A stretch of 50,696 nt of DNA from an uncultured Erysipelotrichales bacterium (lineage in GTDB: Bacteria > Bacillota_I > Bacilli_A > Erysipelotrichales > CAZWEF01), in assembly GCA_964632125.1 (NCBI GenBank), contig CAZWEF010000004.1, forward strand, positions 1 to 50,696. The letters are read 5' to 3'. The translations under genes and the position numbers were made by a program. Under the pieces are notes generated by a model, which saw only the letters and a list, made by a program, of their open reading frames with translations, was not told the DNA's origin and did no database searches. Positions 4,210-33,483 of the stretch are shown here, piece after piece (within the stretch, counting starts at the first letter, position 1; each line of letters begins with the position of its first letter).

Positions 4210-4210
4210 A

Positions 4211-6732: not shown

Positions 6733-6751
6733 GTATTGGCAACGTAATAAT

Positions 6752-6827
6752 GCTTGAATAGCTCAGTTGGTAGAGCAATCGGCTGTTAACCGATCGGTCG
6801 TAGGTTCGAGTCCTACTTCAAGCGCCA
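6752..6827 (+). tRNA. tRNA-Asn(GTT)
   Basis: Acceptor GCTTGAA/TTCAAGC, anticodon arm ATCGG-CT-GTT-AA-CCGAT, TTCGA loop, CCA. Confidence 0.97.
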
Positions 6828-6829
6828 TT

Positions 6830-6906
6830 GGCTCGTTGGTGAAGTGGCTTAACACAGCGCCCTTTCACGGCGTCATTCACGGGTTCGAATCCCGTACGAG
6901 TCACCA
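6830..6906 (+). tRNA. tRNA-Glu(TTC)
   Basis: Acceptor GGCTCGT/ACGAGTC, anticodon arm GCGCC-CT-TTC-AC-GGCGT, TTCGAAT, CCA. Confidence 0.97.
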
Positions 6907-6910
6907 TTTA

Positions 6911-6937
6911 AAAGACACATCGAAAGATGTTTTTTTT
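6911..6937 (+). terminator. Terminator after the tRNA pair
   Basis: ACATC-GAAA-GATGT plus T run. Confidence 0.75.
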
Positions 6938-6938
6938 A

Positions 6939-6967
6939 TTGCTTTTTTAAGAATGAAGTGCTATTAT
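6939..6967 (+). promoter_or_regulatory. sigmaA promoter of the riboswitch/antiporter operon
   Basis: TTGCTT-17 bp-TATTAT with TG extended -10. Confidence 0.7.
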
Positions 6968-6972
6968 TTCTA

Positions 6973-7026
6973 TAGGAAATGATGTCTTCCTTGTACAACT
7001 AAACCGCGATAGCTGATGACGTCTAC
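6973..7026 (+). ncRNA. Fluoride riboswitch (crcB motif)
   Basis: P1 AGGAA/TTCCT enclosing ATGATGTC; AAACCGC-GATA-GCTGATGAC; pseudoknot GATGTC/GACGTC; 3' CTAC. Confidence 0.9.
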
Positions 7027-7051
7027 TTTTTTAAGTAGGTCATCTTTTTTT
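7015..7051 (+). terminator. Riboswitch expression-platform terminator
   Basis: GATGAC-(GT)-CTACTT / AAGTAG-GTCATC followed by T7; the 5' arm is the aptamer's 3' pseudoknot strand. Confidence 0.85.
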
Positions 7052-7059
7052 ATGGAGGT

Positions 7060-8238
7060 ATGATGATGATATATGATTTGGGAAAGGTATTGGTATTAGG
7101 TGTTGTGGTTGGTTGGTTATTTTCTAAGGTTAAGCTACCAAGTTTACTTGGTATGTTAATTGTTGGTATGATGATTGGACCTTATGGATTTGGGCTTCTA
7201 AATGGTGCTTTATTGGATATTTCAGCAGAGTTAAGACAAGTTGCACTCATTGTCATTTTGACGCGTGCTGGTCTAGGGATGGATGTTCAAAAAATCAAAA
7301 AACTTGGTTTAGCAGCCTTACTTATGTGCTTTTTGCCAGCAGTTTTTGAAATTGTTGCGGTTACTATTTTATCTAGTTTATTGTTTCATTTCTCAATTAT
7401 AGATGGTATGATTTTAGGGAGTATTCTAAGTGCAGTATCGCCAGCTATTATTGTTCCTAGGATGCTTCATCTAAAGGAGCAACCAAATATTAATCAAGAC
7501 ATTGTTCAACTTGTTTTAACAGGTGCATCGCTCGATGATGTGTTTGTACTAGTCGTGTTTAGTAGTCTAGTTTCAATTCGGCTGACAGGTCAGTTTGATG
7601 TCAGTCAGCTAAGTGTTGTACCAATTTCAATCATGACTGGTATCGTCATTGGTGCTCTTTTTGGGAAACTACTTTCAATTGTGTCAAAAGTAGGTGCATT
7701 GAAGGTTCAAACGATGATTGTTTTACTATTTGGTATGAGTTTGTTCTTGTTAGGTGTTGAAAAACAATTGCCATTTGCATTTTCAGCCATGGTTGCCATC
7801 ATTGTACAAAGTTTAGTCCTTGTGATGCAATCACCTCATTTACAAAGCCCACTTGACAAGGCCTATCAAACGTTTTGGCAAGGTGCAGAAGTATGGTTGT
7901 TTGTACTGGTAGGTTGTTTACTCGATTTTCGTCTCATTTTAACTTATGGACTTCTAGCGGCAGCGCTTGTTTTGGGTGCACTCTTGATTCGTATGGTTGG
8001 TGTTTTTGTTAGCTTAATGCCAACTTCTTTTACGCCAAAACATAAGATTTATACCATGATGTCTTATATACCAAAAGCAACTGTTCAGGCCGCAATTGGA
8101 GCCATTCCACTATCATTAGGCTTTCAAACAGGTCAATTGATGTTGGTCTTATCTGTTTTAGCTATTTTGATTTCAGCACCATTAGGGGCATGGATAATGG
8201 ATCATTTTTCTTATTTAGCTATTAATAAGGAGGTATAG
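7060..8238 (+). CDS. Cation:proton antiporter, NHA/SLC9B-like
   Basis: Highly hydrophobic; ILTRAGL, AVSPAIIVP, GASLDD di-Asp, FVLVG, PKATVQAAIG motifs. Confidence 0.88.
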   Translation: MMMIYDLGKVLVLGVVVGWLFSKVKLPSLLGMLIVGMMIGPYGFGLLNGALLDISAELRQVALIVILTRAGLGMDVQKIKKLGLAALLMCFLPAVFEIVAVTILSSLLFHFSIIDGMILGSILSAVSPAIIVPRMLHLKEQPNINQDIVQLVLTGASLDDVFVLVVFSSLVSIRLTGQFDVSQLSVVPISIMTGIVIGALFGKLLSIVSKVGALKVQTMIVLLFGMSLFLLGVEKQLPFAFSAMVAIIVQSLVLVMQSPHLQSPLDKAYQTFWQGAEVWLFVLVGCLLDFRLILTYGLLAAALVLGALLIRMVGVFVSLMPTSFTPKHKIYTMMSYIPKATVQAAIGAIPLSLGFQTGQLMLVLSVLAILISAPLGAWIMDHFSYLAINKEV

Positions 8239-8239
8239 T

Positions 8240-9958
8240 ATGTTTTCATTGTTGAGGTTTGCAAAAGAGTATCGGTTTCAAATGATTGTTGGGCCTTTTT
8301 TTAAGTTTCTAGAAGCTGTCTTAGAGTTGTTTATACCTATTATGATGGCACAATTAATTGATCAAGGTATTCATCAAAACAACATGGATTTTGTTTTAAG
8401 GAAAGGTGTCGTTATTTTGGTTATATCCCTAGTTGGGTTGGTTTCGGTTTTTATTTGTCAGTATTTAGCCTCTATTGCTTCGCAAGGCTTTGGTACGAAC
8501 CTTAGAAACGAACTTGTTAAACACATGCATCACTTATCATTAACTGACCTTGACCATTTAAAAGAAGGAAAAATGTTGTCACTGGTAACCAGTGATGTCA
8601 ACCAAATGCAATTGATGTTGGCCATGTTAATTCGCTTGGTTGTGAGAGCACCTTTCTTAAGTTTAGGGGCATTGATTATGGCATTTTATATCAACTCACA
8701 AATGGCTATGATTTTTGTGATGGTATTACCTATTTTTGGGTTAATGCTCTGGTTAACAATTAAACTAACACGACCTATGTTCAAAAAAGTTCAAAGACAA
8801 CTCGATCAATACATTGGTCTTATTACTGAAACATTGGGTGGTGTGCGTGTTATCCGTGCGTTTGGTAAAAGTCAACATCAAAAAGAACGTGTGATGGAAG
8901 CAAGCGATGATTTAGCACGTTTATCTATTCGCGCGAACCGATTAGCGAGTTTAATCAACCCTCTTACAACACTCACTTTAAATATTGGTATCATGCTTAT
9001 TTTACAATTATCAGGGCAACAAGTGATGATTGGACATATGACTCAAGGAGATGTGCTTGCACTCATCAATTACATGTCACAAATGCTTTTGGCATTGATT
9101 ATTGTTTCTCAACTCGTTGTCATCTTTACACGGGCATCTGCTTCTGCTTCAAGGATTGAAGAGGTCTTGTCGATGAAACCATCGATGATTGATCAAAAAA
9201 CAGCACACCCACTCTCAGCTATTGTTCAATTAGAAGCAAATGAACTATCATTTCGCTATGGTCGTAGTAAAGACATACTTAAACAAATTAATCTAACGAT
9301 AAAACAAGGTGAAGTACTGGGGATTACGGGACCAACAGGAAGCGGGAAAAGTACACTCGGTTATGTGCTTGGAAGATTGTATGATGCTGATAGTGGTCAT
9401 GTTTGTATCAATCACATTAATATTCAACAATATGCGATTCAAGACTTAAGAAGAAAAATTGCCTATGTACCTCAAGATACCATTTTATTTACTGGCACAA
9501 TCGCAAGTAACCTTCGCATAGGCAAGCCGGATGCGACCATTGAGGAAATGGAAAAAGCACTCGAAATAGCACAATGCCTTTCATTTGTTCGATCACTTTC
9601 AAGAGGACTTGAGGCACCAGTTGTAGAAGGAGGTAAAAACTTCTCAGGAGGACAAAAACAGCGTGTTGCAATTGCTCGTGCACTTGTTGGTCAACCACAA
9701 TTATTAATTTTAGATGATGCTTTAAGTGCTTTGGATTATCAAACGGATAAGTTATTAAGGACGGCATTAAAAACGGAGTTGAAAGAGACGATGGTTGTGG
9801 TTATCTCACAACGCATTAGCAGTATTGTTGACGCTGATCAAATCTTGGTTTTACAAGAAGGGGAAACAGTTCAAATGGGAACCCATCAAGAACTCATGAG
9901 AACGTGTTCACTTTATAAAGATATGGTGATGCTTCAAACAAAGGCGGTGAACGCATGA
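8240..9958 (+). CDS. Heterodimeric ABC exporter, subunit 1 (TMD-NBD, degenerate Walker B)
   Basis: GPTGSGKS, FSGGQKQR, LILDD in place of DE. Confidence 0.92.
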   Translation: MFSLLRFAKEYRFQMIVGPFFKFLEAVLELFIPIMMAQLIDQGIHQNNMDFVLRKGVVILVISLVGLVSVFICQYLASIASQGFGTNLRNELVKHMHHLSLTDLDHLKEGKMLSLVTSDVNQMQLMLAMLIRLVVRAPFLSLGALIMAFYINSQMAMIFVMVLPIFGLMLWLTIKLTRPMFKKVQRQLDQYIGLITETLGGVRVIRAFGKSQHQKERVMEASDDLARLSIRANRLASLINPLTTLTLNIGIMLILQLSGQQVMIGHMTQGDVLALINYMSQMLLALIIVSQLVVIFTRASASASRIEEVLSMKPSMIDQKTAHPLSAIVQLEANELSFRYGRSKDILKQINLTIKQGEVLGITGPTGSGKSTLGYVLGRLYDADSGHVCINHINIQQYAIQDLRRKIAYVPQDTILFTGTIASNLRIGKPDATIEEMEKALEIAQCLSFVRSLSRGLEAPVVEGGKNFSGGQKQRVAIARALVGQPQLLILDDALSALDYQTDKLLRTALKTELKETMVVVISQRISSIVDADQILVLQEGETVQMGTHQELMRTCSLYKDMVMLQTKAVNA

Positions 9959-11673
9959 AACAATTTATGTCGCTTTTTAAAACACATAAACGATACGTCA
10001 TGTTCATTATTGTTGTTGGATTAATGATTGGTGTTACCTCCGTTTTATTAACATTCCTTATTGGCCGTGGGATTGATATGATGATTGGGAAAGGCATGGT
10101 GGACTTTAAACAACTTGGCGTATACGTTATGTATATGATGCTTGTCCTCGCAGTGAATGTTGTGATGCAATGGTGTTTGATCCATATGACAAATGGTTTA
10201 TCCTTTAAACTTGTGCATGAACTCAGAACAAAGGCCATAGAGCAACTCTCTTTATCCGGTATTGCATTTTATGATCAACATGCACATGGTGATCTTGTTA
10301 GTCGTTTTACGACAGATTTAGAAAGTTTGGCTGACGCGTTGGTTGCTCTTTTCTCAAGCTTATTTCCAGGTATTTCAATTATTATCATCAGTTTGGTATT
10401 TATGATACAGTCAAGTATTTGGTTAATGTGGGTTATTGTGTTAACCACACCGCTCATTTTTATTGCAGCATTCGTGGTCGCAAAGTTATCTCAAAAAAAC
10501 TTTAGACAACAACAAACTCATAATGGCCGTTTAACAGGCTATATCCATGAGATGTTTCATGGCTATCGTATTGTCAACATGTTTGGTTACGAACAAAGTG
10601 TTATCGATACCTATGAAGCATTGAACCTTGATCTTAAATATTGGGGACAAAAAGCGCAGTTCACATCCTCAATCACTAACCCCTTAACACGCTTTGTTAG
10701 TCACTTAACTTATTTATTGATTGGTGTTGTCGGTGGCTATTTAATGATTGTTTTAAAAGACCCAACAATGACTGTTGGCGTAATTACAAGCTTTTTGCTT
10801 TACTCAAGTCAGTTTTCAAAACCTTTTGTTGAATTGTCAGGTATCGCAACACAAATTCAATCAGGTGTGGTTGGTTATCAACGTATTCAAAGTGTTATTC
10901 ATGAACCAATCTTTGAGCATGCTGATGGTAAAACCTTAACCAATATTAAAGGAGAAGTTGCTTTTTCTCATGTTTCGTTTGGATATGATCAATCAAAACG
11001 CATTTTAAATGATTTGAGTTTACACGTAATGCCAGGTCAAACAGTGGCCATTGTTGGTGAAACAGGATCGGGAAAAACGACAATGGTTAATTTGTTGATG
11101 CGGTTCTATGATTTAGATGAAGGGATGATTTACATTGATGGAGAGCCCTTTACACACTATACAAAAAACAGTGTTAGACAAGCCTTTGGTATGGTGCTTC
11201 AAGATACTTGGCTGATGTCAGGGACAATTAAGGAAAACATTGCATATGGTCGCCCAGATGCAACAATGGAAGAGATTATTCGTGTCTCAAAAGAAGCCTA
11301 TATTCACCATTTCATTGAGCGTTTACCGGATGGATATGATACATTGATTGGTGGTCACGGCATCCATTTGTCATCTGGACAAAAACAACTCATGACCATT
11401 GCAAGAACCATGCTTTCAAATCCAACCATGCTTATTTTAGATGAAGCGACAAGTTATGTGGATCCCTTAACAGAACGTCATATTCAAAGTGCCTTTTTAA
11501 AATTAATGAAAAATAAAACCAGTTTTGTTATTGCGCATCGACTCAGTACCATTCAAGATGCTGACTTGATTCTTGTGATGAAACATGGTCAAATGATTGA
11601 AGTTGGTCAACATCAAGAATTGCTTGATTTAAAAGGTTATTACTATGATTTGTATCAAGCACAGTTTTCATGA
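9955..11673 (+). CDS. Heterodimeric ABC exporter, subunit 2 (TMD-NBD)
   Basis: GETGSGKT, LSSGQKQL, ILDEATS, IAHRLST; ATGA overlap with subunit 1. Confidence 0.92.
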   Translation: MKQFMSLFKTHKRYVMFIIVVGLMIGVTSVLLTFLIGRGIDMMIGKGMVDFKQLGVYVMYMMLVLAVNVVMQWCLIHMTNGLSFKLVHELRTKAIEQLSLSGIAFYDQHAHGDLVSRFTTDLESLADALVALFSSLFPGISIIIISLVFMIQSSIWLMWVIVLTTPLIFIAAFVVAKLSQKNFRQQQTHNGRLTGYIHEMFHGYRIVNMFGYEQSVIDTYEALNLDLKYWGQKAQFTSSITNPLTRFVSHLTYLLIGVVGGYLMIVLKDPTMTVGVITSFLLYSSQFSKPFVELSGIATQIQSGVVGYQRIQSVIHEPIFEHADGKTLTNIKGEVAFSHVSFGYDQSKRILNDLSLHVMPGQTVAIVGETGSGKTTMVNLLMRFYDLDEGMIYIDGEPFTHYTKNSVRQAFGMVLQDTWLMSGTIKENIAYGRPDATMEEIIRVSKEAYIHHFIERLPDGYDTLIGGHGIHLSSGQKQLMTIARTMLSNPTMLILDEATSYVDPLTERHIQSAFLKLMKNKTSFVIAHRLSTIQDADLILVMKHGQMIEVGQHQELLDLKGYYYDLYQAQFS

Positions 11674-11696
11674 AAGTACATCCGTGTACTTTTTTT
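11673..11696 (+). terminator. Terminator ending the antiporter-ABC operon
   Basis: AAAGTACA-TCCG-TGTACTTT plus T run. Confidence 0.8.
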
Positions 11697-11732
11697 AGAT
11701 TCTTTTGTATAATAAAAGAAGGAGGGATAACA

Positions 11733-12698
11733 ATGTCAAAGAATAGAGATGTAAGACGTGTTGCACTGGTAGGGACAGGATTTGTCGGTATGAGTTTTGC
11801 TTACGCATTAATTAATCAAGGTGCGGCAGATGAATTGGTTTTGATTGATATCAATCAAGAGAAGTCAATTGGAGAAGCCATGGACTTAAACCATGGTACA
11901 AGTTTTGGACCTTCAATTACCAAAGTTTTTGCAGGGACATACGACGATTGTGAATATGTTGATGTTGTTGTGATAACAGCTGGAGCGCCACAATTACCTG
12001 GTGAAACAAGATTGGATTTAGCGGCTAAGAATGCAAAAATTATCAAAGATATTACATTGAAAATAAAAGCATCAGGATTTCATGGCATGATTGTGGTTGC
12101 ATCAAACCCTGTTGATTTGATGACTTATGTGGTGGCAGAGGTTTCAGGTCTACCAAAGAATCAAGTTATTGGTTCAGGAACGACTTTGGATACATCGCGA
12201 TTACGCTATCTTCTAGGTAGTCACATCGGAATTAGTAGTAAAAATATACATGCTTACATTCTAGGTGAACATGGGGATAGTTCTTTTGTGCCTTGGTCGA
12301 ATGCTTATATTGGTACGAAAGCACTGATTCCGTATTTACAAGAGCGACATATTTACAAACAAGAAGTGCTTGATGATATTTATGTTCAAGTAAGAGATGC
12401 TGCTTATAAAATTATTGAAGCTAAAAAAGCAACCTACTATGCAATTGGGATGGCACTTGTGCGTATTGTAAAAGCTATATTTGAGGACGAAGCATCTGTT
12501 TTAACTTTGTCAGTTTATTTGAATGGTCATTATCATGTGGAAGATCTTTACATTGGTGTGCCAGCTGTTTTAACAAGACATGGCGTTAAAGAAATCATTC
12601 AATTAGATTTGACAATTGAAGAGCAAAAGCAATTTGAGGCGTCAGTAAATAAACTTAAAGACGTATTAGAAACGACGATTAAACCTATATTAAGATAA
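11733..12698 (+). CDS. ldh: L-lactate dehydrogenase (true start ATG 11733)
   Basis: GTGFVG, ITAGAPQLPGETRLDL, ASNPVD, GTTLDTSR, GEHGDS; SD AAGGAGGG. Confidence 0.96.
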   Translation: MSKNRDVRRVALVGTGFVGMSFAYALINQGAADELVLIDINQEKSIGEAMDLNHGTSFGPSITKVFAGTYDDCEYVDVVVITAGAPQLPGETRLDLAAKNAKIIKDITLKIKASGFHGMIVVASNPVDLMTYVVAEVSGLPKNQVIGSGTTLDTSRLRYLLGSHIGISSKNIHAYILGEHGDSSFVPWSNAYIGTKALIPYLQERHIYKQEVLDDIYVQVRDAAYKIIEAKKATYYAIGMALVRIVKAIFEDEASVLTLSVYLNGHYHVEDLYIGVPAVLTRHGVKEIIQLDLTIEEQKQFEASVNKLKDVLETTIKPILR

Positions 12699-12717
12699 CT
12701 ATTTAGTTATCTTTTTT
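12692..12717 (+). terminator. ldh terminator
   Basis: AAGATAACT-ATTT-AGTTATCTT plus T run. Confidence 0.8.
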
Positions 12718-12795
12718 CATTATCGGTGTTAAATAAAGGAAAACTTGTTTTGAAACAAAATTCTAAATATTGAAATAAAAATGAAATTCTTTGTT

Positions 12796-12828
12796 TTTAT
12801 GGTTTATTTAAGGTATATATTATATGAT
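12796..12828 (+). promoter_or_regulatory. CiaR-type regulator box and promoter
   Basis: TTTATG-N5-TTTAAG-N10-TATGAT, the geometry of streptococcal CiaR-activated promoters. Confidence 0.55.
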
Positions 12829-12879
12829 AGGTATTGAAATAGAAAAGTGAGGGATCTAAATTTTAACACCCAAAATAAC

Positions 12880-12908
12880 TTGAATTTTAAAAGAATGAAC
12901 GATATACT
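12880..12908 (+). promoter_or_regulatory. sigmaA promoter of the response regulator operon
   Basis: TTGAAT-17 bp-TATACT. Confidence 0.7.
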
Positions 12909-12945
12909 TAAAATTGATTAGTTCGAAAATAGGAGGAGGGGTACA

Positions 12946-13617
12946 ATGAAAGTCTTAGTTGTAGAAGATGATACTCGTATTAATGAAAGCCTAAAACACA
13001 TTTTAGAGCGAGATTTTCAGGTTGAAACGGCGTACAATGGAGAAGAAGGTCTTTTTCTTGCAAAAGAAAGTGAGTTTGATTTACTAATTTTAGATGTGAT
13101 GATGCCAGGTATGGATGGGTTTGAACTGCTTGAGGCTTATCGCAAACACAACAAACGAACACCAGTTATTTTTGTTACTGGAAAAGACCAACTAGAAGAT
13201 CGCATTCAAGGTTACCGATTAGAATGTGATGACTATATCATTAAGCCATTTGATGAAGAGGAACTTTTGCTCAGAATTAAGGCAGTTTTGAAAAGACAAG
13301 ATAAAAATCAAATACTAAGATTTGAAGAGTTAGAGCTTCATGCTAGCAGTCGTACACTTAAAGCAAATGGGCAGGTCATTGAGCTTAGAGGAAGACAATA
13401 TGAGCTGTTGGAATACTTACTTTTAAATAAGAACCGTATTCTTTCAAAAGAACAAATTTTTGATCGCATTTGGGGTATTGATTCAGATACGGGAATTAAT
13501 GTTGTAGAAGTTTATTCACATGCGATTAGAAATCACTTAAAACAATTAGGGTGTGCACATTATTTAAGAACCATTCGTGGTATAGGTTATATGATGCGTG
13601 CTGTAAAGAATACGTAA
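12946..13617 (+). CDS. OmpR-family response regulator, CiaR-like
   Basis: VVEDD, LDVMMP, IKPF; IFDRIWGIDSDTGINVVEVY resembles CiaR. Confidence 0.92.
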   Translation: MKVLVVEDDTRINESLKHILERDFQVETAYNGEEGLFLAKESEFDLLILDVMMPGMDGFELLEAYRKHNKRTPVIFVTGKDQLEDRIQGYRLECDDYIIKPFDEEELLLRIKAVLKRQDKNQILRFEELELHASSRTLKANGQVIELRGRQYELLEYLLLNKNRILSKEQIFDRIWGIDSDTGINVVEVYSHAIRNHLKQLGCAHYLRTIRGIGYMMRAVKNT

Positions 13618-13622
13618 TTTAA

Positions 13623-14861
13623 ATGACAAAGCATCAACAACGTATTTGGCTTACTTACTTTGTTTCTTTTGCTTTTTTGGTTGGCTTCTTTTCGTTTAGT
13701 ATTTTTGAGGTGGTTAAAAGTCAAGAATCACATCGACATGAAGCAACACTAAAAGCACAATTTGAACAGCTTCAAACGCAAGTCCTTTCAACACCAATGA
13801 CCTTAACGGATTTGTCTATTTTCATGACGCAAAATCGAATGCTTGGACAAATATACAATGAGGATTTTCAACTTTTACCAAGCTATATTTATTCAAATAT
13901 TGATGTCACTTTAACATCAAAAGAAATAAAAACCAATACCATGATAAACTTTAAAATTAATGTTGAGGGAACGACATTTTATTTGCCAGGTATATTATAT
14001 CCTGCAACCTTTCAAAATCGTACTTATTATGTTTTGTTGTTGTCAAAAAACATAGATAGCCTAGATTTGTTAAACCACTTAAAACAAGTGTTGTTTTATG
14101 GCAGTGCACTCGTCATTGTAGCAGGTATACTGATGAGCTATTTTGTTTCTAAAAAGAGCATGAAACCTATTTATTTGTCATGGAAAAAGCAACAACAGTT
14201 TACCCATGATGCCAGTCACGAGCTAAGAACACCAATCACTGTAATCATGTTAAAAGCTGATAAGCTATTAAAACATCAAGATGGGATCATTGAGGATCAT
14301 ATTGAAGATGTCATTGCGATTAAAAATGAAGGTCGTCGTATGAAAAAACAAGTTGAAGATTTGTTGCTTTTATCAAGAGGCGATAGTGGTATGTTGGTCC
14401 TTGATGTTGTTCAAGTTAGTATTGAAGATGAAATCATGGCATGTTTTAATGTATTTGAAGAACTTGTTGAAGTAAGTGGTAAAAAACTGTTAACTGAGTT
14501 GAACTTCAATCCAATGCTACAAATAGATGTTGAACGATTTAAGCAAATTCTAATGATTTTACTTGATAATGCTTTAAAGTACACCCCGGATGGAGGAACT
14601 ATTTGGATTAAAACAAGTAAGTCAGGGCATCGGTTGAAACTAGATGTTATCAATTCAAGTCCTCCAATTGAGGATAAACATTTGTCACATCTGTTTGAAC
14701 GTTTTTATCAAGTTGATACAAGTAGAAGTGATCAATCTTCAGGCCTTGGACTAGCGATTGCAAAGCAACTTGTTTTATTACATCACGGTAGTATTCATGT
14801 GAGCAATACTGATGAAGGGGTTTGTTTCACAGTTTATTTAAATGTTATAAGGAACCACTAG
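13623..14861 (+). CDS. Sensor histidine kinase, CiaH-like
   Basis: Two TM helices, DASHELRTP H-box, LLDNALKY N-box, RFYQVD, SGLGLAIA. Confidence 0.92.
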   Translation: MTKHQQRIWLTYFVSFAFLVGFFSFSIFEVVKSQESHRHEATLKAQFEQLQTQVLSTPMTLTDLSIFMTQNRMLGQIYNEDFQLLPSYIYSNIDVTLTSKEIKTNTMINFKINVEGTTFYLPGILYPATFQNRTYYVLLLSKNIDSLDLLNHLKQVLFYGSALVIVAGILMSYFVSKKSMKPIYLSWKKQQQFTHDASHELRTPITVIMLKADKLLKHQDGIIEDHIEDVIAIKNEGRRMKKQVEDLLLLSRGDSGMLVLDVVQVSIEDEIMACFNVFEELVEVSGKKLLTELNFNPMLQIDVERFKQILMILLDNALKYTPDGGTIWIKTSKSGHRLKLDVINSSPPIEDKHLSHLFERFYQVDTSRSDQSSGLGLAIAKQLVLLHHGSIHVSNTDEGVCFTVYLNVIRNH

Positions 14862-25493: not shown

Positions 25494-26219
25494 CTATTCC
25501 TTAGCATGTAGATAGTGTTCAAAAATCATATCCACAACAAACATTAAGTAAGAACGTGGTGTTACATCAAAATGATTAATCTGTTGACTTGGGACATCAG
25601 TTGTTAAATAGATGTCACAATATTGTTGTAGTTGTTGATCAAACTGATTGGTTATACCAACAGTATGGCATTGCTTATGATACAATTGACTTGCTACATT
25701 ATGAATTGTTTTTGTTTTGCCACTTGATGATATATAAATAATCAAATCATTTTTTTTAACACTTTGTGGCAGTAGTGTTAGGATATGAGAATCATAAATG
25801 TAACGAGAGTCTTTTCCGGATTGTAACAACAACTTACTCAGATATTCTGCAATTGGTTTTGATAAACCAACGCCAATGATTAAAACTTTATTTGCTTCAA
25901 TTAATTGATCGGCAATGGTTTTATAAACAGGTTGATTTTGTTTTAAAGACTCAATTTGTTGAAAAAAAGACATGGGATTTTGAACGGTTGAAGGTAAACT
26001 CAATAGTGAGTATTTTAATTCACTAAACCCATCAAGATTCATTTTATGACACATTCTAATAACCGTGGTTGTACTCACATTGGCTAGTTTAGCAAGTTGA
26101 ATCAAAGTTAATGCATGATACTGATCACTATTCATGTTTTCTAATGTGTATAAAACATGTAACTCTGAAGCACTTAATAAATGCACTTGGGTTTCAAATA
26201 ATTGAATAAGATTTGGCAT
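25494..26219 (-). CDS. MurR/RpiR-family regulator, divergent from the PTS cluster
   Basis: LAKLANVSTTTVIRMCHKM.LDGFSELK; SIS motifs GVGLS, ISSSGKT, ITN. Confidence 0.92.
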   Translation of the reverse strand: MPNLIQLFETQVHLLSASELHVLYTLENMNSDQYHALTLIQLAKLANVSTTTVIRMCHKMNLDGFSELKYSLLSLPSTVQNPMSFFQQIESLKQNQPVYKTIADQLIEANKVLIIGVGLSKPIAEYLSKLLLQSGKDSRYIYDSHILTLLPQSVKKNDLIIYISSSGKTKTIHNVASQLYHKQCHTVGITNQFDQQLQQYCDIYLTTDVPSQQINHFDVTPRSYLMFVVDMIFEHYLHAKE

Positions 26220-26332
26220 AGCAACCTCCTTTTATGCTTATTATAAGGCAAATGCCACTGACTTACTAGTATGGAGATGATACGGTTGTACAATTATACG
26301 CTTTATGTACAAGAAAGAACAAATGAACATGA

Positions 26333-26357
26333 TACAATGCCATTGTAAGCACTTACT
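26333..26357. promoter_or_regulatory. Palindromic operator over the -10 plus a cre-like site upstream of the PTS gene
   Basis: TACAATG-C-CATTGTA (26333-26347) overlaps the TG-extended -10 TACAAT; TGTAAGCACTTACT (26344-26357) is cre-like with 2 mismatches. Confidence 0.5.
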
Positions 26358-26371
26358 AGAGGGGGATTAAA

Positions 26372-28306
26372 ATGAACATAAAAGATGTATTAAAGCCACA
26401 ATTTATTTTATTTGATGAGCATTTTGAAACAAAAGAAGAGGCCATTAAAGCAATGATCGCATTGCTAGCAAAAGAAGGGGTTGTCACAGACGCGACAGCA
26501 TTTGAACAAGCTGTTTACGCAAGAGAACAGCAATCACCAACGGGATTAGAAAATGGGTTAGCCATTCCTCATGGTCAAGATGCAAGTGTACTTGAACCCA
26601 CTGTTGTTTTTGCTAGACTCAAAAAACCAATCAAAGATTGGGAAAGCATTGATCCAAATAATCAAGTAGATATGATATTTATGATTGCCATTCCAAAAAC
26701 AAATGAAGACAATATTCATTTACAAGTATTGTCTCAATTAAGTCGTGCACTTGGCAGTAAAAAAGAAGTTGAACGTTTACGAACTGTGAATGCGTATGAA
26801 ACATTTGTTTCATTCTTTAACCAAGAAAAGGAAGTCACTTCAACAAAAGAAAGTAGAGGTTATCTATTAGCTGTAACAGCTTGTTCAACTGGTATTGCGC
26901 ATACTTACATGGCTGCAACTAGTTTAGAAGAAGCCGCCAATGAACTTGGCTATAGCATTAAAGTAGAGAAACAAGGTGCAAGTGGTATTGAAGATCGTAT
27001 TACAAAAGAGGATGTTCAAAAAGCAGAAGGTGTTATTTTTGCAGTAGATGTTGCAGTGAAAGAAAAAGAGCGATTTAATGGATTAAAGGTTGTTCAAGTT
27101 AAAGTTGCTGAACCACTGCATGATGCTAAAAAAGTCATTCAACAATTGATTTCGAGTAAACAAATTGTCAATGAAGCTGTTACACTAGAAGACTCAGTAT
27201 CACAAAAAGGACGATTCTATCAAGCTTTAATGAACGGTATCTCATACATGATTCCAGTTCTAGTTGCGGGTGGACTTTTAGTTGGTATTGCAAAGCTTAT
27301 CGCAATGGGATTTGGTGTGACACAAATCATTATTTCAGCTGACTTAATGGCTCAACAAACAAGTCGATGGATGTGGTTGTTGTACCATATGGATAAATTT
27401 GGCAGTTTATTATTGACCTATATCTATCCAATCTTTGGTATGTTTGCAGCGTATTCAATCGCTGATCGACCAGGATTAGTTCCGGGATTTGCTGCTGGTA
27501 TGTTGGCTGGCGGTCTTCATATTGGGCCACTAGGATTAAAAGGGGCTGTACCATCAGGATTCATAGGCGCCATCATTTTAGCATTCCTTGCTGGTTTTGT
27601 CGCAGATTGGATCAACAAAAATTTAAAAGTTTCTAAAAATCTTTCGGCGATTAAACCGATGTTAATTATTCCAGGTGTCACTTTATTGATTGTTTTTCTT
27701 GCAAGCTACTTCTTTGTCGAACCAGTGTTTGGATGGGTAAACTTTCAAATGCAAGAATTCATTCGTCGTTCACAAGATGTTGGAAAATATGGATTATCTG
27801 CTTTAATTGCAGGGTTAACAGCATTTGACTTAGGGGGACCTATCAACAAAGCTGCTGGGGCTGTCGCAATTCCACTTGCTGCAGAAGGTGTTTTCCCATT
27901 AACGCCACGTGTGCTTGCCATAGTGATTCCGCCAATTGGATTAGGGCTTGCTACTGTTATTGATCGCTTTGTTGTTCGTCGTCGTGTTTTCTCGGATGAA
28001 CTAAGAGTAACGGGCAGTACATCACTTGTACTTGGCTTTATTGCAGTGAGTGAAGGTGCAATCCCATTCATGTTAAAAAATCCATTGATTACAATCCCAA
28101 TCAATATTATCGGTGCGATACTTGGTTCTTGGACAGCCATTTATTTTGGTGCTGTTCAGTGGTTACCATTACCTGCTATATGGGGTTGGCCACTCGCAAC
28201 CAATGTTGGTGCATATGTGTTAGGCGTTGTTGTAGGCGTATTATTTATTGCTTTTGCAAATATTTTTGTACGCTACATGATCATAAAAAAACAAGAGGCA
28301 CGTTAG
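26372..28306 (+). CDS. PTS fructose-family EIIABC (MngA-like)
   Basis: AIPHG EIIA His, TACSTGIAHTYMAA EIIB Cys, DLGGPINK and EGAIPF EIIC motifs. Confidence 0.92.
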   Translation: MNIKDVLKPQFILFDEHFETKEEAIKAMIALLAKEGVVTDATAFEQAVYAREQQSPTGLENGLAIPHGQDASVLEPTVVFARLKKPIKDWESIDPNNQVDMIFMIAIPKTNEDNIHLQVLSQLSRALGSKKEVERLRTVNAYETFVSFFNQEKEVTSTKESRGYLLAVTACSTGIAHTYMAATSLEEAANELGYSIKVEKQGASGIEDRITKEDVQKAEGVIFAVDVAVKEKERFNGLKVVQVKVAEPLHDAKKVIQQLISSKQIVNEAVTLEDSVSQKGRFYQALMNGISYMIPVLVAGGLLVGIAKLIAMGFGVTQIIISADLMAQQTSRWMWLLYHMDKFGSLLLTYIYPIFGMFAAYSIADRPGLVPGFAAGMLAGGLHIGPLGLKGAVPSGFIGAIILAFLAGFVADWINKNLKVSKNLSAIKPMLIIPGVTLLIVFLASYFFVEPVFGWVNFQMQEFIRRSQDVGKYGLSALIAGLTAFDLGGPINKAAGAVAIPLAAEGVFPLTPRVLAIVIPPIGLGLATVIDRFVVRRRVFSDELRVTGSTSLVLGFIAVSEGAIPFMLKNPLITIPINIIGAILGSWTAIYFGAVQWLPLPAIWGWPLATNVGAYVLGVVVGVLFIAFANIFVRYMIIKKQEAR

Positions 28307-28334
28307 TGCTTCTTCATCATGAAAAGGAGGACCT

Positions 28335-30920
28335 ATGAAACGAATTGTCCACGTTATACCCCATACGCATTGGGATCGTGAATGGTATTTTAATTTGATT
28401 GATTCAAATATTATTCTTGATCAAAATCTAACTGCCTTAATTACTTATTTAAATGAATCAAAACAAAATGGTCCTTTCTTATTTGATGGACAGACATCTG
28501 TCATTCATGATTATTTGATGATACGACCTGAACAAAAGCAAAATCTTATGCAATTGATTCAAGAAGGCCGTTTATTGGTTGGACCATGGGTTACGCAATG
28601 TGATACAAGATTAATTAGCCAAGAATCAGTCATTCGTAATCTTAAAATAGGGATTAAGGAGGCCAATCAATTTGGTAAATGTTTTCAAGTTGGCTATGTA
28701 CCAGATGCTTTTGGACAAAACAGTTATTTACCTTCCATTTTCAAACAATTTCAACTTCGATATGCTGTGATCCAAAGAGGTATTGCAAACAATCAACTTA
28801 CAAGCCAAGATTTAAATATGAATTGGGAATCACCTGATGGACAAAGAATAATGACCCATTATCTTTATTTTGGATATGGACCAGGTAAGTTTTTATCTTC
28901 AAACAAAACATATGTAGAGAACCATCTTACCCCAATACTAGAACAATTGTCTTTGCTCAACCAACATACCAAACACTTGGCATTACCTGCTGGAGGGGAT
29001 CAAGTTTTATATCGTGAACACTTACCTAAAGTTATTGAACAACTCAATCAACAAGCATCCAGTTATCATTTCGTGATGTCTAACTATGAAGACATGTTAC
29101 ATCAAATTGAATGTGCGTTAGAAAAACCATTGACCACCATTAAAGGTGAATTGATGCACTGCCAAAAATCAAGGATTCATCGCACTATAGCCTCTACTCG
29201 CTATGACATTAAACAACTCAATAGTATGGTTGAACATCGCATCCTGTACCAACTAGAACCATTAATGGTTTATGCACATTCAAAAGGAATTCATGCTTTT
29301 AATGAAACCATCATGACTCAAATGTGGCGCAAATTATTTGATGTTCATGCACATGACAGTATCTCAGGATGTAACAGTGATCGCACCAATCAAATGATTA
29401 TCAATCGATTAATGGATGTTTTAGACCAAGTCGACGGGATGATCAATGTTTTAATGCGTTATCTAACACAATCATTAGAAGATGGTCAAATATTGATTTT
29501 TAATCCATTACTTAGATCAATCAATCAACCAATTGAAGTTGAAGTAGACACCAACTTGAGTGCATTTGAACTCTTTGATCAAGAAGGTAATCAAATATCA
29601 TTTACAATGCTTGATAATCAAATCATTGATGGTGGTACAAAAGTAATGGCCACAGCAAAAGGAGAGGTCCTAGATTCATTGCCACCATATCACCATGTTA
29701 AACTTTTACTTCATGATGTCAATCTAGATGCTTTTTCTCATAAAATCATTCATTTAACAAAACATGATGCTTATATATTACCAAAACAAGTGACTGTTGT
29801 TGAAAACATTGCTTATCAAGTATTTGTAGAAGACCATCAATTGTATCTTTTTGATAAAAAAAGCCAACGTAAACAATTATTTCTTTCAATTGTTGATGAT
29901 GCAGATCAAGGGGATACATATGATTTTGCTTATGTTGAAGGGGACAAACGAATTAAAGCAGAGATTGATATGAATTCTATTAAGATGACATCAACACAAT
30001 CATCTCAACAAATGGTTTTTGATTATGTCATGACATTACCAGAAGACTTGCAGCAAAGAAAACAATCATTGAACAATGTCTTACATCGAATTAAAACAAT
30101 CGTCACATTACAACTTGATGGCGCGATTTGGATCACACATCATATGACCAATCATGTTAAAGAACATCGCGTTCGTACGCTTTTACATATAAAAGGCAAT
30201 GTATGGGCAAAACAAGCGTTTGGGATGATTCAACGTGACCATGAGCCGGTTGATTGGAAAAAGGAAGGCTATGTTGAACAACCATTACCAGTTGATGTCA
30301 TGGACCAAATGATTCACATAACTGGAGACGAAGATATGTATGTCTTATCACAACAAATGAAAGAATATGAAGTGGTTGATGATGGTGTTGAATTGACCTT
30401 ATTTAGGAGTGTTCCGTTTTTAGGTAAAGACAATTTAACGACAAGACCAGGTCGTGCATCAGGGATTAATAATACAGTAGTTGAAACACCTGATGCGTTA
30501 TTATTAAAACCAATGACATTTACGTACGCAGTGACGCCAAATGCTGATTGGCAAGCTGATTATCATCATTTGTATCAAACTGTATTAAGTTATCAAAAAC
30601 AACAATACAATTTACTTAATCAACGATTGGATCGCTTTGAATTGCCATGCATGACAAACATTCATATGCCTTTAGGCATTGCATGTCATCCATCTTTGTA
30701 CCAAAGTAGTTTCTCAATTCAAGGTAATGACTATGTTTTGAGATTGGCTAACTTGACGCAAGAGGCACTTCCAATTGATTTAACGCTAGATCATGATTTT
30801 GAAGCGATTCCTGTATTATTAGATGAAACAACCATTCAACCTGTTGTTTTAAAACTTGAACCAAATCAATATGCAACATGGTTGATCAAAAGGAGAACAC
30901 ATGAAAAGACAAGTAATTGA
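28335..30920 (+). CDS. GH38 alpha-mannosidase (MngB-like)
   Basis: HTHWDREWY, VPDAFG nucleophile, AHDSISGC. Confidence 0.92.
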   Translation: MKRIVHVIPHTHWDREWYFNLIDSNIILDQNLTALITYLNESKQNGPFLFDGQTSVIHDYLMIRPEQKQNLMQLIQEGRLLVGPWVTQCDTRLISQESVIRNLKIGIKEANQFGKCFQVGYVPDAFGQNSYLPSIFKQFQLRYAVIQRGIANNQLTSQDLNMNWESPDGQRIMTHYLYFGYGPGKFLSSNKTYVENHLTPILEQLSLLNQHTKHLALPAGGDQVLYREHLPKVIEQLNQQASSYHFVMSNYEDMLHQIECALEKPLTTIKGELMHCQKSRIHRTIASTRYDIKQLNSMVEHRILYQLEPLMVYAHSKGIHAFNETIMTQMWRKLFDVHAHDSISGCNSDRTNQMIINRLMDVLDQVDGMINVLMRYLTQSLEDGQILIFNPLLRSINQPIEVEVDTNLSAFELFDQEGNQISFTMLDNQIIDGGTKVMATAKGEVLDSLPPYHHVKLLLHDVNLDAFSHKIIHLTKHDAYILPKQVTVVENIAYQVFVEDHQLYLFDKKSQRKQLFLSIVDDADQGDTYDFAYVEGDKRIKAEIDMNSIKMTSTQSSQQMVFDYVMTLPEDLQQRKQSLNNVLHRIKTIVTLQLDGAIWITHHMTNHVKEHRVRTLLHIKGNVWAKQAFGMIQRDHEPVDWKKEGYVEQPLPVDVMDQMIHITGDEDMYVLSQQMKEYEVVDDGVELTLFRSVPFLGKDNLTTRPGRASGINNTVVETPDALLLKPMTFTYAVTPNADWQADYHHLYQTVLSYQKQQYNLLNQRLDRFELPCMTNIHMPLGIACHPSLYQSSFSIQGNDYVLRLANLTQEALPIDLTLDHDFEAIPVLLDETTIQPVVLKLEPNQYATWLIKRRTHEKTSN

Positions 30921-32508
30921 AATGCTTTGTGCTTTATACCCACATGAAGACCAGTCAAACATTGAAGCAAGACTTCATGCATTAATGCTAAAATATGTTG
31001 ATATTAAAAAAAGCGAACCTTTAACCTATCAAAATACGTATTTAATTACTTATGGTGATGGTATTTATGAAGCAAAAAAGAAAACGTTTCAAACATTACA
31101 TCGCTTTTTAAAAGAACATGTAGGAACCCTTATAAGGGATGTTCATATTTTACCAATGTTTCCATACACATCAGATGATGGATTTTCTGTGCTTGATTAT
31201 CGACAAATAAACCCTAAATTTGGAACATTTGAAGACTTACAAATGATGGCAAAAGATTACCGACTTATGTACGACTTTGTTGCCAATCACATGTCAAGTC
31301 AAAGTAAGTGGTTCAAAGACTATTTAAATGATGTTGCACCATATAAAGATTATTTTGTTACTTATGATCCAAACTTTGACACCTCGATGGTCGTTCGTCC
31401 AAGAACAAGTCCTTTGTTTCATGACTATCCAAGTGCACATGGAACTAAAAAAGCATGGACAACATTCTCAGAAGATCAGGTGGATTTAAATATCCAGTCC
31501 TTTGATGTATTTCTTGAATTAACTGATATTTTGTTGTTTTATTTAGAAAAAGGAGCAACCAGTATTCGTTTAGATGCAATTGGCTTCCTGTGGAAAAAAT
31601 CTCATACCTCATGCATCCATTTACCTGAAACACATGAAATCATTCAAATTTGGCGAACTATTCTAAGCGATCTCAACCCACATGCCCAAATTATCACTGA
31701 AACAAACGTTCCTCATGAAGAAAACATTAGCTATTTTGGTAATGGAGACAATGAAGCGAACATGGTTTATCAATTTACTTTACCACCATTGATGTTACAC
31801 ACATTTATCAGCAAAGATGCGACTAAATTAGCTCAGTGGGCAGCAACAATTGAAGTCCCTTCAAACACTGCAACATATTTTAACTTTCTTGCGAGTCATG
31901 ATGGGATTGGGATGCGACCTGTTGAAGGCATTCTAGATGAAGCAGAAGTACAAGCAATCATGCAACATGTTTTGGATAAACAAGGACGTATTTCCTATAA
32001 ACAAAACGTTGATGGCTCAACATCACCTTATGAACTCAACATCAACTATTGTGATGCTTTAGACTGTGATGATAGCTATCAACTTCAGCGTATGATTTTA
32101 GCGTATGCCTTTATGATGTCATTGGTTGGTGTTCCAGCTATTTATTATCATAGCTTACTTGGGTCTTCAAATGATGTAGCAGGTATGATATCAAGTGGCA
32201 TTAATCGTCGGATTAATCGTGAAAAGCTTGAATACGATACTTTAGTAAGAGAATTGGAAACAAATGAGCGTCGTCATTTCATTTTTACACAAATGAAACA
32301 ACTGTTAAAGCAAAGACAAGATGAGCCACTCTTCAATCCTTTTAATGCTCAGTCTGTACAACTTCTAGAGCGACATGTTGTGGTTGTTACACGTTACGAC
32401 AGGACACATAAGATTGATTGTTACTTCAATTTCAATGATGAAGTAGGTCAAATAGGAGAACTGACACTAGAACCATTTGGTTATTTGTTTGTCAAGTCAG
32501 CATTATAG
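30901..32508 (+). CDS. GH13_18 sugar phosphorylase, glucosylglycerate-phosphorylase-like
   Basis: SSDDGF-type SDDGF, NHMS, RLDA, ITETNVPH, NFLASHDGIG, PYELN. Confidence 0.88.
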   Translation: MKRQVIEMLCALYPHEDQSNIEARLHALMLKYVDIKKSEPLTYQNTYLITYGDGIYEAKKKTFQTLHRFLKEHVGTLIRDVHILPMFPYTSDDGFSVLDYRQINPKFGTFEDLQMMAKDYRLMYDFVANHMSSQSKWFKDYLNDVAPYKDYFVTYDPNFDTSMVVRPRTSPLFHDYPSAHGTKKAWTTFSEDQVDLNIQSFDVFLELTDILLFYLEKGATSIRLDAIGFLWKKSHTSCIHLPETHEIIQIWRTILSDLNPHAQIITETNVPHEENISYFGNGDNEANMVYQFTLPPLMLHTFISKDATKLAQWAATIEVPSNTATYFNFLASHDGIGMRPVEGILDEAEVQAIMQHVLDKQGRISYKQNVDGSTSPYELNINYCDALDCDDSYQLQRMILAYAFMMSLVGVPAIYYHSLLGSSNDVAGMISSGINRRINREKLEYDTLVRELETNERRHFIFTQMKQLLKQRQDEPLFNPFNAQSVQLLERHVVVVTRYDRTHKIDCYFNFNDEVGQIGELTLEPFGYLFVKSAL

Positions 32509-32530
32509 GCACACCCAAAGGTGTGCTTTT
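32509..32530 (+). terminator. Terminator of the PTS-GH38-GH13 operon
   Basis: GCACACC-CAAA-GGTGTGC plus T run. Confidence 0.8.
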
Positions 32531-32730
32531 ATATTTACTTTTTGGATTGCTACTAGATGATGGTCATATGTTTGAAGAAACATTAATAAACCTGTTTCAT
32601 TCATCTTTTATAATCAAAGGAATAAGTAATAAGGAAATCCATTTTATGAATAATTAATCGTTCTTTTTTCTTTTAAGGTAGTAACTGAATCACTTTTTTG
32701 ATAAAATATAGGATGAAAGTAGGGATTTAT

Positions 32731-33483
32731 ATGACACAAACAACCATCCTAGACCATGTTTTTCATTATCACATGAGTGGTGAAGGCCAAGATGTGATAT
32801 TGATGCATGGGTGGGGTCAAAATATTGATATGATGATGCCACTGCATCAACACTTACAAAAGACACATCGTGTCTGGACCATTGATTTTCCTGGATTTGG
32901 ACAAAGTGAAGCACCTAAAGTACCATATGATGTTGATGATTATGCAAGGTTCATTCATGAATTTGTGACTCAAATGAACATTCAATCACCAATACTCATG
33001 GGGCACTCATTTGGAGGTCGTGTTGCGATTGTTTATGCGAATATGTTTGAAACAAGTAAAGTTGTTTTGATGGACGCTGCAGGCATTCGTCCTAAACGTA
33101 CATGGGCATATTATACACGAGTCTATACATACAAGATAAGTAAACGACTTGTTTCATTGCCTTTTTTTAGACGTTACCAAAAGCATCTTATGAATAAAGC
33201 AGGTAGCCGCGATTATCGTGCATTAAGTGAAGAGATGAAAAAAACATTTGTTAAAGTTGTCAATCAAGATTTAACACCGCTCCTAAGTACCATGCATCAA
33301 CCGACCTTAATTATATGGGGAGCAAAAGATGAAGATACCCCACTTTGGATGGCACACACAATGGAGAAAATGATTCCTAATGCTGGCCTAATTGTGTTTG
33401 AACAAGCAGGGCATTATGCTTATTTAGAGTGTTTACCTCAAGTGCTTGCAGCGTTAGATGTGTTTTTAAGGGAGGAACAATAG
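32731..33483 (+). CDS. Alpha/beta-fold hydrolase (probable start ATG 32731)
   Basis: HGWG, DFPGFG, GHSFGG (Ser), WGAKD (Asp), AGH (His). Confidence 0.92.
   Translation: MTQTTILDHVFHYHMSGEGQDVILMHGWGQNIDMMMPLHQHLQKTHRVWTIDFPGFGQSEAPKVPYDVDDYARFIHEFVTQMNIQSPILMGHSFGGRVAIVYANMFETSKVVLMDAAGIRPKRTWAYYTRVYTYKISKRLVSLPFFRRYQKHLMNKAGSRDYRALSEEMKKTFVKVVNQDLTPLLSTMHQPTLIIWGAKDEDTPLWMAHTMEKMIPNAGLIVFEQAGHYAYLECLPQVLAALDVFLREEQ

Follow-up and report, generated by a model that had tools for sequence, protein, structure and literature searches.

Glucosylglycerate phosphorylase (GGaP, EC 2.4.1.352) was discovered in 2017, and its characterised representatives include the enzymes of Meiothermus silvanus and Spirochaeta thermophila and E. 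coli YcjM, which is encoded in the ycj cluster together with the kojibiose phosphorylase YcjT and an ABC importer. A review of the family gives the (T/S)ETN motif and a Glu in loop A as the sequence marks of GGaP, and its authors called it curious that the enzyme occurs in bacteria that do not themselves synthesise glucosylglycerate (PMC7178133). The other close system is mngR-mngA-mngB of E. coli, in which a fructose-family EIIABC (MngA) is followed by a cytoplasmic GH38 (MngB); the substrate is described as being taken up as a 6-phosphomannoside, with release of mannose-6-phosphate (Man6P) (Sampaio et al. 2004, as cited in PMC8490865).

The window analysed here, a whole stretch of 50,696 nt from an uncultured gut bacterium of the Erysipelotrichales, carries the same succession of a fructose-family EIIABC and a GH38, extended by a third gene that encodes a GGaP-type GH13_18 enzyme. 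We tentatively read this unit as an RpiR-controlled catabolic operon for mannose-capped glucosylglycerate of the mannosylglucosylglycerate (MGG) type, broken down sequentially, and we regard this reading as quite possible.

Gene layout and control elements

All four genes that the earlier note had grouped into one unit, namely a divergent RpiR gene, a fructose-type EIIABC, a GH38 and a GH13_18, were located in this arrangement. The RpiR-family regulator (25494..26219, minus strand), with HTH_6 and SIS sugar-phosphate-binding domains (Pfam), is transcribed divergently from the operon and differs in type from the GntR-type MngR of E. coli. The intervening segment (26220..26371) is a presumed divergent control region; direct reading of the sequence revealed two TGTACA palindromes at about 26284-26312, a putative extended -10-like element, TGATACAAT, and a putative cre-like element, TGTAAGCACTTACT, immediately 5′ of the ribosome-binding site. 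On the plus strand, the operon begins with a PTS EIIABC of the fructose/MngA type (26372..28306), an EIIA(2)-EIIB-EIIC fusion with Pfam matches to EIIA_2, IIB and EIIC, followed by a cytoplasmic GH38 alpha-mannosidase (28335..30920; Pfam Glyco_hydro_38N and Alpha-mann_mid) and by the GH13_18 enzyme of the GH13 alpha-amylase family (30901..32508), which was assigned to the GGaP type by kinship with YcjM, motifs and tree clade. There is a 20-nt overlap between the GH38 and GH13_18 genes, each of which is preceded by an AGGAG-type ribosome-binding site; the latter, a translationally coupled third gene, has no counterpart in the E. coli mng system. An intrinsic terminator (32507..32528, plus strand), with a T-run behind a nine-pair stem that contains 5 GC pairs, closes the operon. 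We also considered an alpha/beta hydrolase gene (32698-33483) as a further member with an esterase or phosphatase role and rejected it, as it lies 3′ of the terminator and adjoins the module in 0 of 31 PTS-linked loci.

Identity and specificity of the GH13_18 enzyme

The GH13_18 protein aligned with YcjM at 41% identity over 509 residues (E = 8e-147), is similar in length to the characterised GGaPs and has in common with them the two GGaP marks, (T/S)ETN and the loop-A Glu, as well as the GH13 catalytic triad. Its catalytic residues, D225 in RLDA, E267 in TETN and D334 in SHDG, were invariant in an alignment of 82 family members. The TETN motif occupies residues 266-269 (T266-E267-T268-N269; positions 31696-31707) and PYELN residues 376-380 (positions 32026-32040); within the latter, Y377-E378 aligns with the SPYEIN motif of YcjM and supplies the loop-A Glu, where other clades have Gln. 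The earlier note had named both motifs as GGaP determinants, in agreement with the family review (PMC7178133).

The best NCBIfam model for the protein was the sucrose phosphorylase TIGR03852, and the best PDB matches were sucrose and glucosylglycerol phosphorylases (E-values 1e-53 to 1e-37). Sucrose phosphorylase (EC 2.4.1.7) shares subfamily GH13_18 and fold with our enzyme but carries Gln in loop A. We rejected this identity, given that the model score of 203 bits falls below the cut-off of 334, that residue 378 is Glu rather than Gln, and that TETN is present. By sequence, the enzyme is a standard GGaP, with a predicted strict activity on glucosylglycerate.

The earlier note had pointed to a mismatch between a PTS, which delivers a 6-phosphorylated substrate, and a phosphorylase that acts on unphosphorylated glucosylglycerate, and had suggested either a new specificity for glucosylglycerate-6-phosphate or a dependence on a phosphatase. 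According to the first suggestion, the PTS would import glucosylglycerate as its 6-phosphate, which this GH13_18 clade would convert to glucose-1,6-bisphosphate and glycerate. In its favour, the PTS-linked enzymes group in a single clade marked by six specific positions (Y47, M86, S221, W251, K397 and A413), of which M86 and S221 lie near active-site strands in the sequence. Nevertheless, the family alignment showed no gain of a basic residue (Arg, Lys or His) at these six positions, and a glucosylglycerate-6-phosphate specificity is therefore unsupported. Moreover, D92, H130, R166, R168, Q193, R223, D225, K232, E267, N269, H272, H333, D334, Y377, E378, N380, R436 and R440 were invariant in 33 members of the PTS-linked clade and 49 other members, so that the checked catalytic, −1 and +1 residues, with subsites assigned from the alignment and from known residue roles, did not distinguish the PTS-linked enzymes from the other family members, YcjM included. 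This conservation extends to H130, the presumed equivalent of His88 in the Bifidobacterium enzyme, which binds O6.

In the family tree, the subclade found mostly behind PTS and GH38 genes (SH-aLRT 98) is separate from YcjM, which belongs to the sister half and to the ABC/GH65 ycj cluster. Two members nested within the PTS-linked clade have no PTS nearby: one (L016) lies in a ycj-like GFO+GH65 locus, and the other (L017) in a locus with an ABC importer, GH63 and glycerate kinase. ABC importers such as the latter bring in their substrate without phosphate. A new specificity would also leave the GH38 without a role, as far as glucosylglycerate is concerned, and we consider this explanation very unlikely.

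Conservation of the module and its relation to mngAB

The order PTS-GH38-GH13_18 recurred in 31 of 80 GGaP-family loci, in Bacillota and Gammaproteobacteria (Bacillaceae, Clostridium, Listeria, Vibrio and enterics), and the module is spread among soil, marine, gut and food-associated bacteria. In most of the 31 syntenic loci, an RpiR gene is likewise found divergent from the unit, at the corresponding place. In Vibrio, an EIIA gene lies 3′ of the GH13_18 gene, and the phosphorylase is thus flanked by PTS genes. Starting from the GH38 side, a search of 400 genomes of the class, drawn evenly, found a GGaP gene immediately downstream of all three best GH38 matches (39-41% identity), and none next to weaker matches in two genomes of this sample. 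Of the 31 loci, 11 have a glycerate kinase gene next to the unit, and in 8 of them it follows the GH13_18 gene directly; together with the MngA/MngB-like parts and the GGaP-type enzyme, this bears out the earlier description of a catabolic unit for glycerate glycosides, and the link to glycerate is strong. Separately, an EIICBA-GH13_18-glycerate kinase arrangement in Sutcliffiella horikoshii was considered as a PTS directly feeding a GGaP and was set aside as a probable chance adjacency, since the EIICBA resembles the glcT-ptsG pair of Bacillus subtilis and lies ~350 nt away from the GH13_18 gene.

The EIIABC and GH38 are related to MngA and MngB at a distance. The best NCBIfam model for the EIIABC was MngA (NF007293; 428 bits, below the 763-bit equivalog cut-off), and the sole match for the GH38 was the mannosylglycerate hydrolase MngB (NF007331; 573 bits, below the equivalog cut-off of 1138). 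Identity between the EIIABC and E. coli MngA is 33%; the AIPHG and VTAC motifs of the two proteins align, and the phosphorylation sites His67 (EIIA) and Cys171 (EIIB) are retained. The identity of the EIIABC to the PTS proteins of other GGaP-linked loci was 47-52% in Bacillota and 48% in enterics, and 38-41% for the EIIBC genes of Vibrionaceae. The GH38 is 29% identical to E. coli MngB and retains the N-terminal HTHWDREW and PDAFG motifs; no signal peptide was detected in it, and its alignment to MngB starts at residue 5. In the GH38 tree, the GGaP-linked enzymes formed their own clade (SH-aLRT 93), outside the MngB clade (100) of E. coli, Citrobacter, Pseudocitrobacter and Vibrio.

This relationship bears on a second explanation, close to the earlier suggestion that the cluster scavenges both glycerate-based solutes. 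Here, the PTS and GH38 would handle mannosylglycerate in the manner of MngA and MngB, and the GGaP would handle glucosylglycerate entering otherwise, either through an unlinked transporter or by PTS uptake followed by an unlinked phosphatase. MngA and MngB are indeed the best models for the two proteins, the pairing of GGaP with glycerate kinase is already known (PMC7178133), and co-regulation would be sensible with glycerate arising from both solutes. Against this stand the 29-33% identity of the module GH38s to MngB and their separate clade, as well as the gene content of the 31 loci, in which no second transporter is a conserved member of the module and no phosphatase was found either in the shared set of genes or among the annotated neighbours; the latter result also speaks against the proposed dependence on a phosphatase. 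Furthermore, the module persists in three genomes that already possess a true mngAB system and a transporter-linked GGaP: Citrobacter amalonaticus, Pseudocitrobacter and Vibrio maerlii encode a canonical MngB (identity to the E. coli protein 82%, 73% and 65%, respectively) and, within an ABC or ycj-type locus, another GGaP. With both systems present beside it, the module is not simply the two joined, nor a duplicate of either mngAB or ycjM. Finally, a second cluster of GH38, PTS and glycerate kinase genes is already present in the genome under study, and the GH38 encoded there lies closer to MngB (34% identity). We therefore regard this explanation as rather unlikely; the link through glycerate stands, whereas the scavenging of both solutes fits less well than one substrate cut twice, with the module a third system in the three genomes.

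A proposed route for capped glucosylglycerate

The analysis shows the gene set, its conservation, the identity of the GGaP, the paralogy to mngAB and the presence of the downstream enzymes; which substrate is used and which of the two cuts comes first we infer, with the logic of the PTS and GH38 steps adopted from the E. coli mng system. The MngA-like EIIABC would import an MGG-type compound and phosphorylate C6 of its terminal mannose. The GH38, which we propose to be a 6-phospho-alpha-mannosidase, would then cut off Man6P and leave glucosylglycerate without phosphate, and the coupled GH13_18, acting as an ordinary GGaP, would convert this to glucose-1-phosphate (Glc1P) and D-glycerate. ManA, a PgcA-type phosphoglucomutase and the glycerate kinase of contig C20 would carry the three products into glycolysis. 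If the phosphate leaves with the first sugar, the conflict between PTS and phosphorylase would disappear, and no new specificity of the phosphorylase would be needed. Two separate imported glycosides, one for each enzyme, would fit the genomic evidence just as well.

The genome contains ManA, two PGM-family genes and a glycerate kinase. As the earlier note had observed, no glycerate kinase lies within the 50,696-nt window; the gene was found elsewhere in the genome, at C20:13463-14569, in the second GH38-PTS cluster. Among other GGaP-family members, some are located next to the biosynthesis genes GpgS/GpgP; in this genome (98.9% completeness), no GpgS reached the cut-off and MpgS was not found, and glucosylglycerate must accordingly come from outside. 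In a synthetic direction, the GGaP would instead join Glc1P to the glycerate set free by GH38 and so make glucosylglycerate, turning imported mannosylglycerate into a retained solute. GGaP reactions are reversible (PMC11009771), which would permit this, but a glycerate kinase in the unit (11/31 loci) points to glycerate consumption and catabolic units typically have such an RpiR/PTS architecture, making this direction most improbable.

As for the substrate, the compatible solute MGG, Man-alpha1,2-Glc-alpha1,2-glycerate, is to our knowledge the only natural compound with the structure of a mannose-capped glucosylglycerate. MGG is known in only a few organisms, such as Petrotoga and Rhodopirellula (PMC3736172), a poor fit to a widespread module, and the real substrate may thus be a related undescribed compound. 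The same discrepancy favours a variant of the two-step logic in which a 6-phosphorylatable alpha-mannosyl (or related) cap is carried by another glucoside acceptable to this GH13_18 clade; consistent with this variant, GGaP-family genes elsewhere are paired with genes for possible cap removers (GH65 kojibiose-phosphorylase-like and GH63 MGH1-like). However, neither of the two glycerate-binding marks, N269 and E378, varies across the aligned family, and a glycerate kinase is often in the unit, so that glycerate is very likely the aglycone, and we consider this variant unlikely.

Returning to mannosyl-glucosylglycerate-type solutes, an undescribed catabolic route that includes a new GH38 specificity, that of a 6-phospho-alpha-mannosyl-(1,2)-glucosylglycerate hydrolase, is possible, and we hold it with some doubt. 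We know of no reported GH38 that acts on a 6-phospho-mannosyl-glucoside, and the module thus predicts a new substrate for this family. Our full-text literature search on GH38 or MngB with glucosylglycerate or GGaP found no paper on the module, while the synteny may already stand in Franceus 2017; the search on mannosylglucosylglycerate returned only papers on biosynthesis. If true, the route would give MGG biology a catabolic counterpart and would explain the occurrence of GGaP in many bacteria without glucosylglycerate synthesis: the conserved PTS-GH38-GGaP(-glycerate kinase) module offers a testable answer, namely that such bacteria consume capped glucosylglycerates that others produce.

The E. 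coli ycj cluster likewise encodes a GGaP together with an enzyme that takes off a hexose in alpha-1,2 linkage, differing in its ABC uptake without phosphorylation and in a GH65 phosphorylase where the module has a GH38 hydrolase. This likeness suggests that a capped glucosylglycerate may be the true substrate of the ycj cluster as well.

Organization of the operon and identity of its phosphorylase

The unit recognized in the earlier note, with a divergent RpiR regulator, an EIIABC transporter, a GH38 enzyme and a GH13_18 enzyme, was borne out by gene calls and domain content. The regulator gene (HTH_6 plus SIS domains; 25494-26219, minus strand) is separated by a 152-nt control region from the plus-strand gene for a fused EIIA(2)-EIIB-EIIC protein (26372-28306), which is followed on the same strand by the GH38 gene (28335-30920) and the GH13 alpha-amylase-family gene, here GH13_18 (30901-32508). 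The latter two overlap by 20 nt, each is preceded by an AGGAG-type ribosome-binding site, and a terminator with a 9-bp stem and a T-run (32507-32528) closes the operon. We rejected the next gene, encoding an alpha/beta hydrolase, as an operon member because it lies past the terminator and is absent beside the gene set at the other loci bearing it. Within the control region (26284-26357), two copies of the TGTACA palindrome, spaced by about 20 nt, lie upstream of an extended -10 element, TGATACAAT, and a cre-like sequence, TGTAAGCACTTACT, immediately precedes the ribosome-binding site; these elements are candidates for an RpiR operator and a CcpA site. A 131-aa ORF antisense to the EIIC-coding region (27745-28140, minus strand) is most likely spurious.

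The top NCBIfam model for the transporter was MngA, at 428 bits versus 242 bits for FruA, and the sole NCBIfam match of the GH38 protein was MngB, at 573 bits; neither score comes near the respective equivalog cut-off (763 bits for MngA and 1138 bits for MngB). The top solved-structure matches of the 535-residue GH13 protein were GH13_18 phosphorylases (E values of 1e-53 to 1e-37, approximately 30% identity). Its identity to E. coli YcjM is 41% (E = 8e-147); YcjM carries the RefSeq name glucosylglycerate phosphorylase (GGaP) and is strictly a GGaP according to published work (PMC7178133). The TETN and PYELN motifs that the earlier note took as GGaP determinants are both present (T266-E267-T268-N269 and Y377-E378). 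This assignment was right, since in the family review it is (T/S)ETN together with the loop-A Glu that distinguishes GGaP from sucrose-type enzymes (PMC7178133). With the sucrose phosphorylase model the protein scored 203 bits, short of the 334-bit cut-off. The TETN Asn and the loop-A Glu would be the counterparts of Asn275 and Glu383, reportedly described in the Meiothermus enzyme by Franceus 2017.

Conservation and distribution of the gene set

A GH13_18-family scan with one genome per species yielded 80 loci (44-58% identity), 31 of which carried an MngA-like PTS, GH38 and GH13_18 in the same order, usually with a divergent RpiR gene. Carriers of this module include Clostridium, many Bacillaceae, Paenibacillaceae, Listeria farberi, L. 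ilorinensis, Alkalibacterium and Lacrimispora, and further a 'Mollicutes bacterium', Vibrio, Photobacterium, Pseudocitrobacter and Citrobacter amalonaticus. A glycerate kinase gene adjoins the module in 11 of the 31 loci: directly 3′ of GH13_18 in eight, and in single cases approximately 2 kb downstream, upstream of the regulator, or after an interposed EIIA gene. The last is Vibrio maerlii, whose order of RpiR, EIIBC, GH38, GH13_18, EIIA and glycerate kinase places the phosphorylase between PTS genes. When the search instead began from GH38, in 400 genomes sampled evenly from this organism's class, all three of the best matches (39-41% identity) had a GGaP-family gene immediately downstream, and two genomes with weaker matches (32%) had none there. 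Moreover, a short metagenomic contig holds a 74%-identical copy with its downstream neighbors kept.

The distribution is patchy: of 40 genomes from this organism's order (G006-G045), not one carried a GH13_18 or GGaP-family gene, and the module was probably gained horizontally in this lineage. It is built of known families, and we found no description of it in the open literature; in a family review, glycerate kinase, GpgS and GpgP appear as the usual neighbors of GGaP, and neither a PTS nor GH38 is named (PMC7178133).

Two other arrangements were observed. Four Yersiniaceae loci (L040, L042, L048 and L051; Rahnella, Ewingella and Rouxiella) hold a GH13_18 of the PTS-linked clade with no adjoining PTS or GH38 and look like module remnants; in the only one with annotated neighbors (L048, Ewingella), a carbamoyltransferase gene flanks it on either side. 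In Sutcliffiella horikoshii (L036, 6434-15009), genes for a BglG-type antiterminator and a glucose-family EIICBA immediately precede those for GH13_18, glycerate kinase and CdaR, with a 350-nt gap between EIICBA and GH13_18 and no hydrolase gene; the GH13_18 may have come to lie beside a glcT-ptsG-like pair by chance, or the PTS may genuinely feed a GGaP.

Possible substrates: phosphorylated or mannose-capped

Given that a PTS delivers a 6-phosphate, the earlier note proposed that the GH13_18 enzyme might have a new specificity for glucosylglycerate-6-phosphate (GGa-6-P) or depend on a phosphatase. In a phylogeny of 82 family members, those linked to a PTS formed a single clade of 33 (SH-aLRT 98), with YcjM in the other half. 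All 18 residues aligned to catalytic and subsite positions (D92, H130, R166, R168, Q193, R223, D225, K232, E267, N269, H272, H333, D334, Y377, E378, N380, R436 and R440) were invariant across both halves, and the only six clade-specific positions (Y47, M86, S221, W251, K397 and A413) included no gain of Arg, Lys or His. Furthermore, two members nested within the clade have no PTS: that of Paenibacillus cremeus (L017) accompanies ABC importer, glycerate kinase and GH63 MGH1-like hydrolase genes, and that of Neobacillus notoginsengisoli (L016) has a GFO-family oxidoreductase and GH65 as neighbors in a ycj-like locus. Substrates taken up by an ABC importer arrive unphosphorylated. The simplest reading of these alignments and neighborhoods is that the PTS-linked clade would also act on plain glucosylglycerate. 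The invariant residues at the aligned positions, the lack of a basic gain and the two PTS-free members thus lend GGa-6-P specificity no positive support, and neither the conserved genes of the module nor the annotated neighbors included a phosphatase. The earlier interpretation therefore stands in part: a catabolic unit for glycerate-linked glycosides containing an ordinary GGaP is likely, and a GGa-6-P enzyme is unlikely.

A mannose residue on top of glucosylglycerate would remove the mismatch between PTS and phosphorylase. The PTS would phosphorylate the mannose, GH38 would release Man6P, the remaining glucosylglycerate, free of phosphate, would be a normal GGaP substrate, and the glycerate would pass to glycerate kinase. 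We put forward this full sequence tentatively, as the leading reading. Among loci of this kind, it is the PTS-linked form that can tell the competing models apart. To our knowledge, the one natural compound with such a structure is mannosylglucosylglycerate (MGG; Man-alpha1,2-Glc-alpha1,2-glycerate). It occurs in Petrotoga and Rhodopirellula (PMC3736172), and we found no description of its breakdown in the literature. The main weakness of the scheme is that MGG is rare and the module widespread; the compound actually used may therefore be a relative not yet described.

Three genomes bear on this substrate. C. amalonaticus, Pseudocitrobacter vendiensis and V. maerlii encode, besides the module GH38 (31-32% identical to E. 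coli MngB), a canonical MngB (82%, 73% and 65% identical, respectively). Each also has a second GGaP-family gene. In the two enterics this gene is orthologous to YcjM (73-86% identical) and belongs to a ycj cluster that includes YcjN, an oxidoreductase and GH65; the V. maerlii copy is ABC-linked and accompanied by glycerate kinase. These genomes thus retain the module alongside one system for mannosylglycerate and another of the glucosylglycerate type, which argues that the module serves a third substrate. In the GH38 tree, the GGaP-linked enzymes grouped together (SH-aLRT 93), separate from the MngB clade (SH-aLRT 100) and from a paralogue on contig C20 of the same genome as the window, although long branches, including that of the window GH38, leave the fine detail unsure.

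GGaP-family genes also lie beside GH63 MGH1-like genes (L017, L066, L068 and L075) and, in the ycj type, GH65 kojibiose-phosphorylase-like genes (L016, L026, L039, L045, L059, L069, L110 and L112). These partners could likewise be cap removers, and the family may usually act on capped glucosylglycerates rather than on the free solute.

Glycerate kinase and a second GH38-PTS cluster in the same genome

The genome (2.07 Mb, 98.9% complete) encodes ManA, two PGM-family proteins (445 and 574 residues) and, as the earlier note had proposed looking for, a glycerate kinase, the only Gly_kinase gene (C20:13463-14569); the organism is thus predicted to use Man6P, Glc1P and glycerate. Within this assembly, GpgS was not detected at the cut-off and MpgS was not found, so synthesis of these solutes is not predicted.

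The kinase gene is the last of a second cluster (C20, approximately 6170-14590; 1169-9588 of locus L006) comprising RpiR, an 851-residue GH38 and a glucose-family EIICB without EIIA, so that the genome holds two glycerate-tied PTS-GH38 systems. Compared with E. coli MngB, the C20 GH38 (34%, 481 bits) is the nearer of the two enzymes, the window GH38 reaching 29% (347 bits), and the C20 cluster is probably the organism's mannosylglycerate-type system. A divergent RpiR-GH4 pair adjoins this cluster, the GH4 being of the 6-phospho-alpha-glucosidase type.
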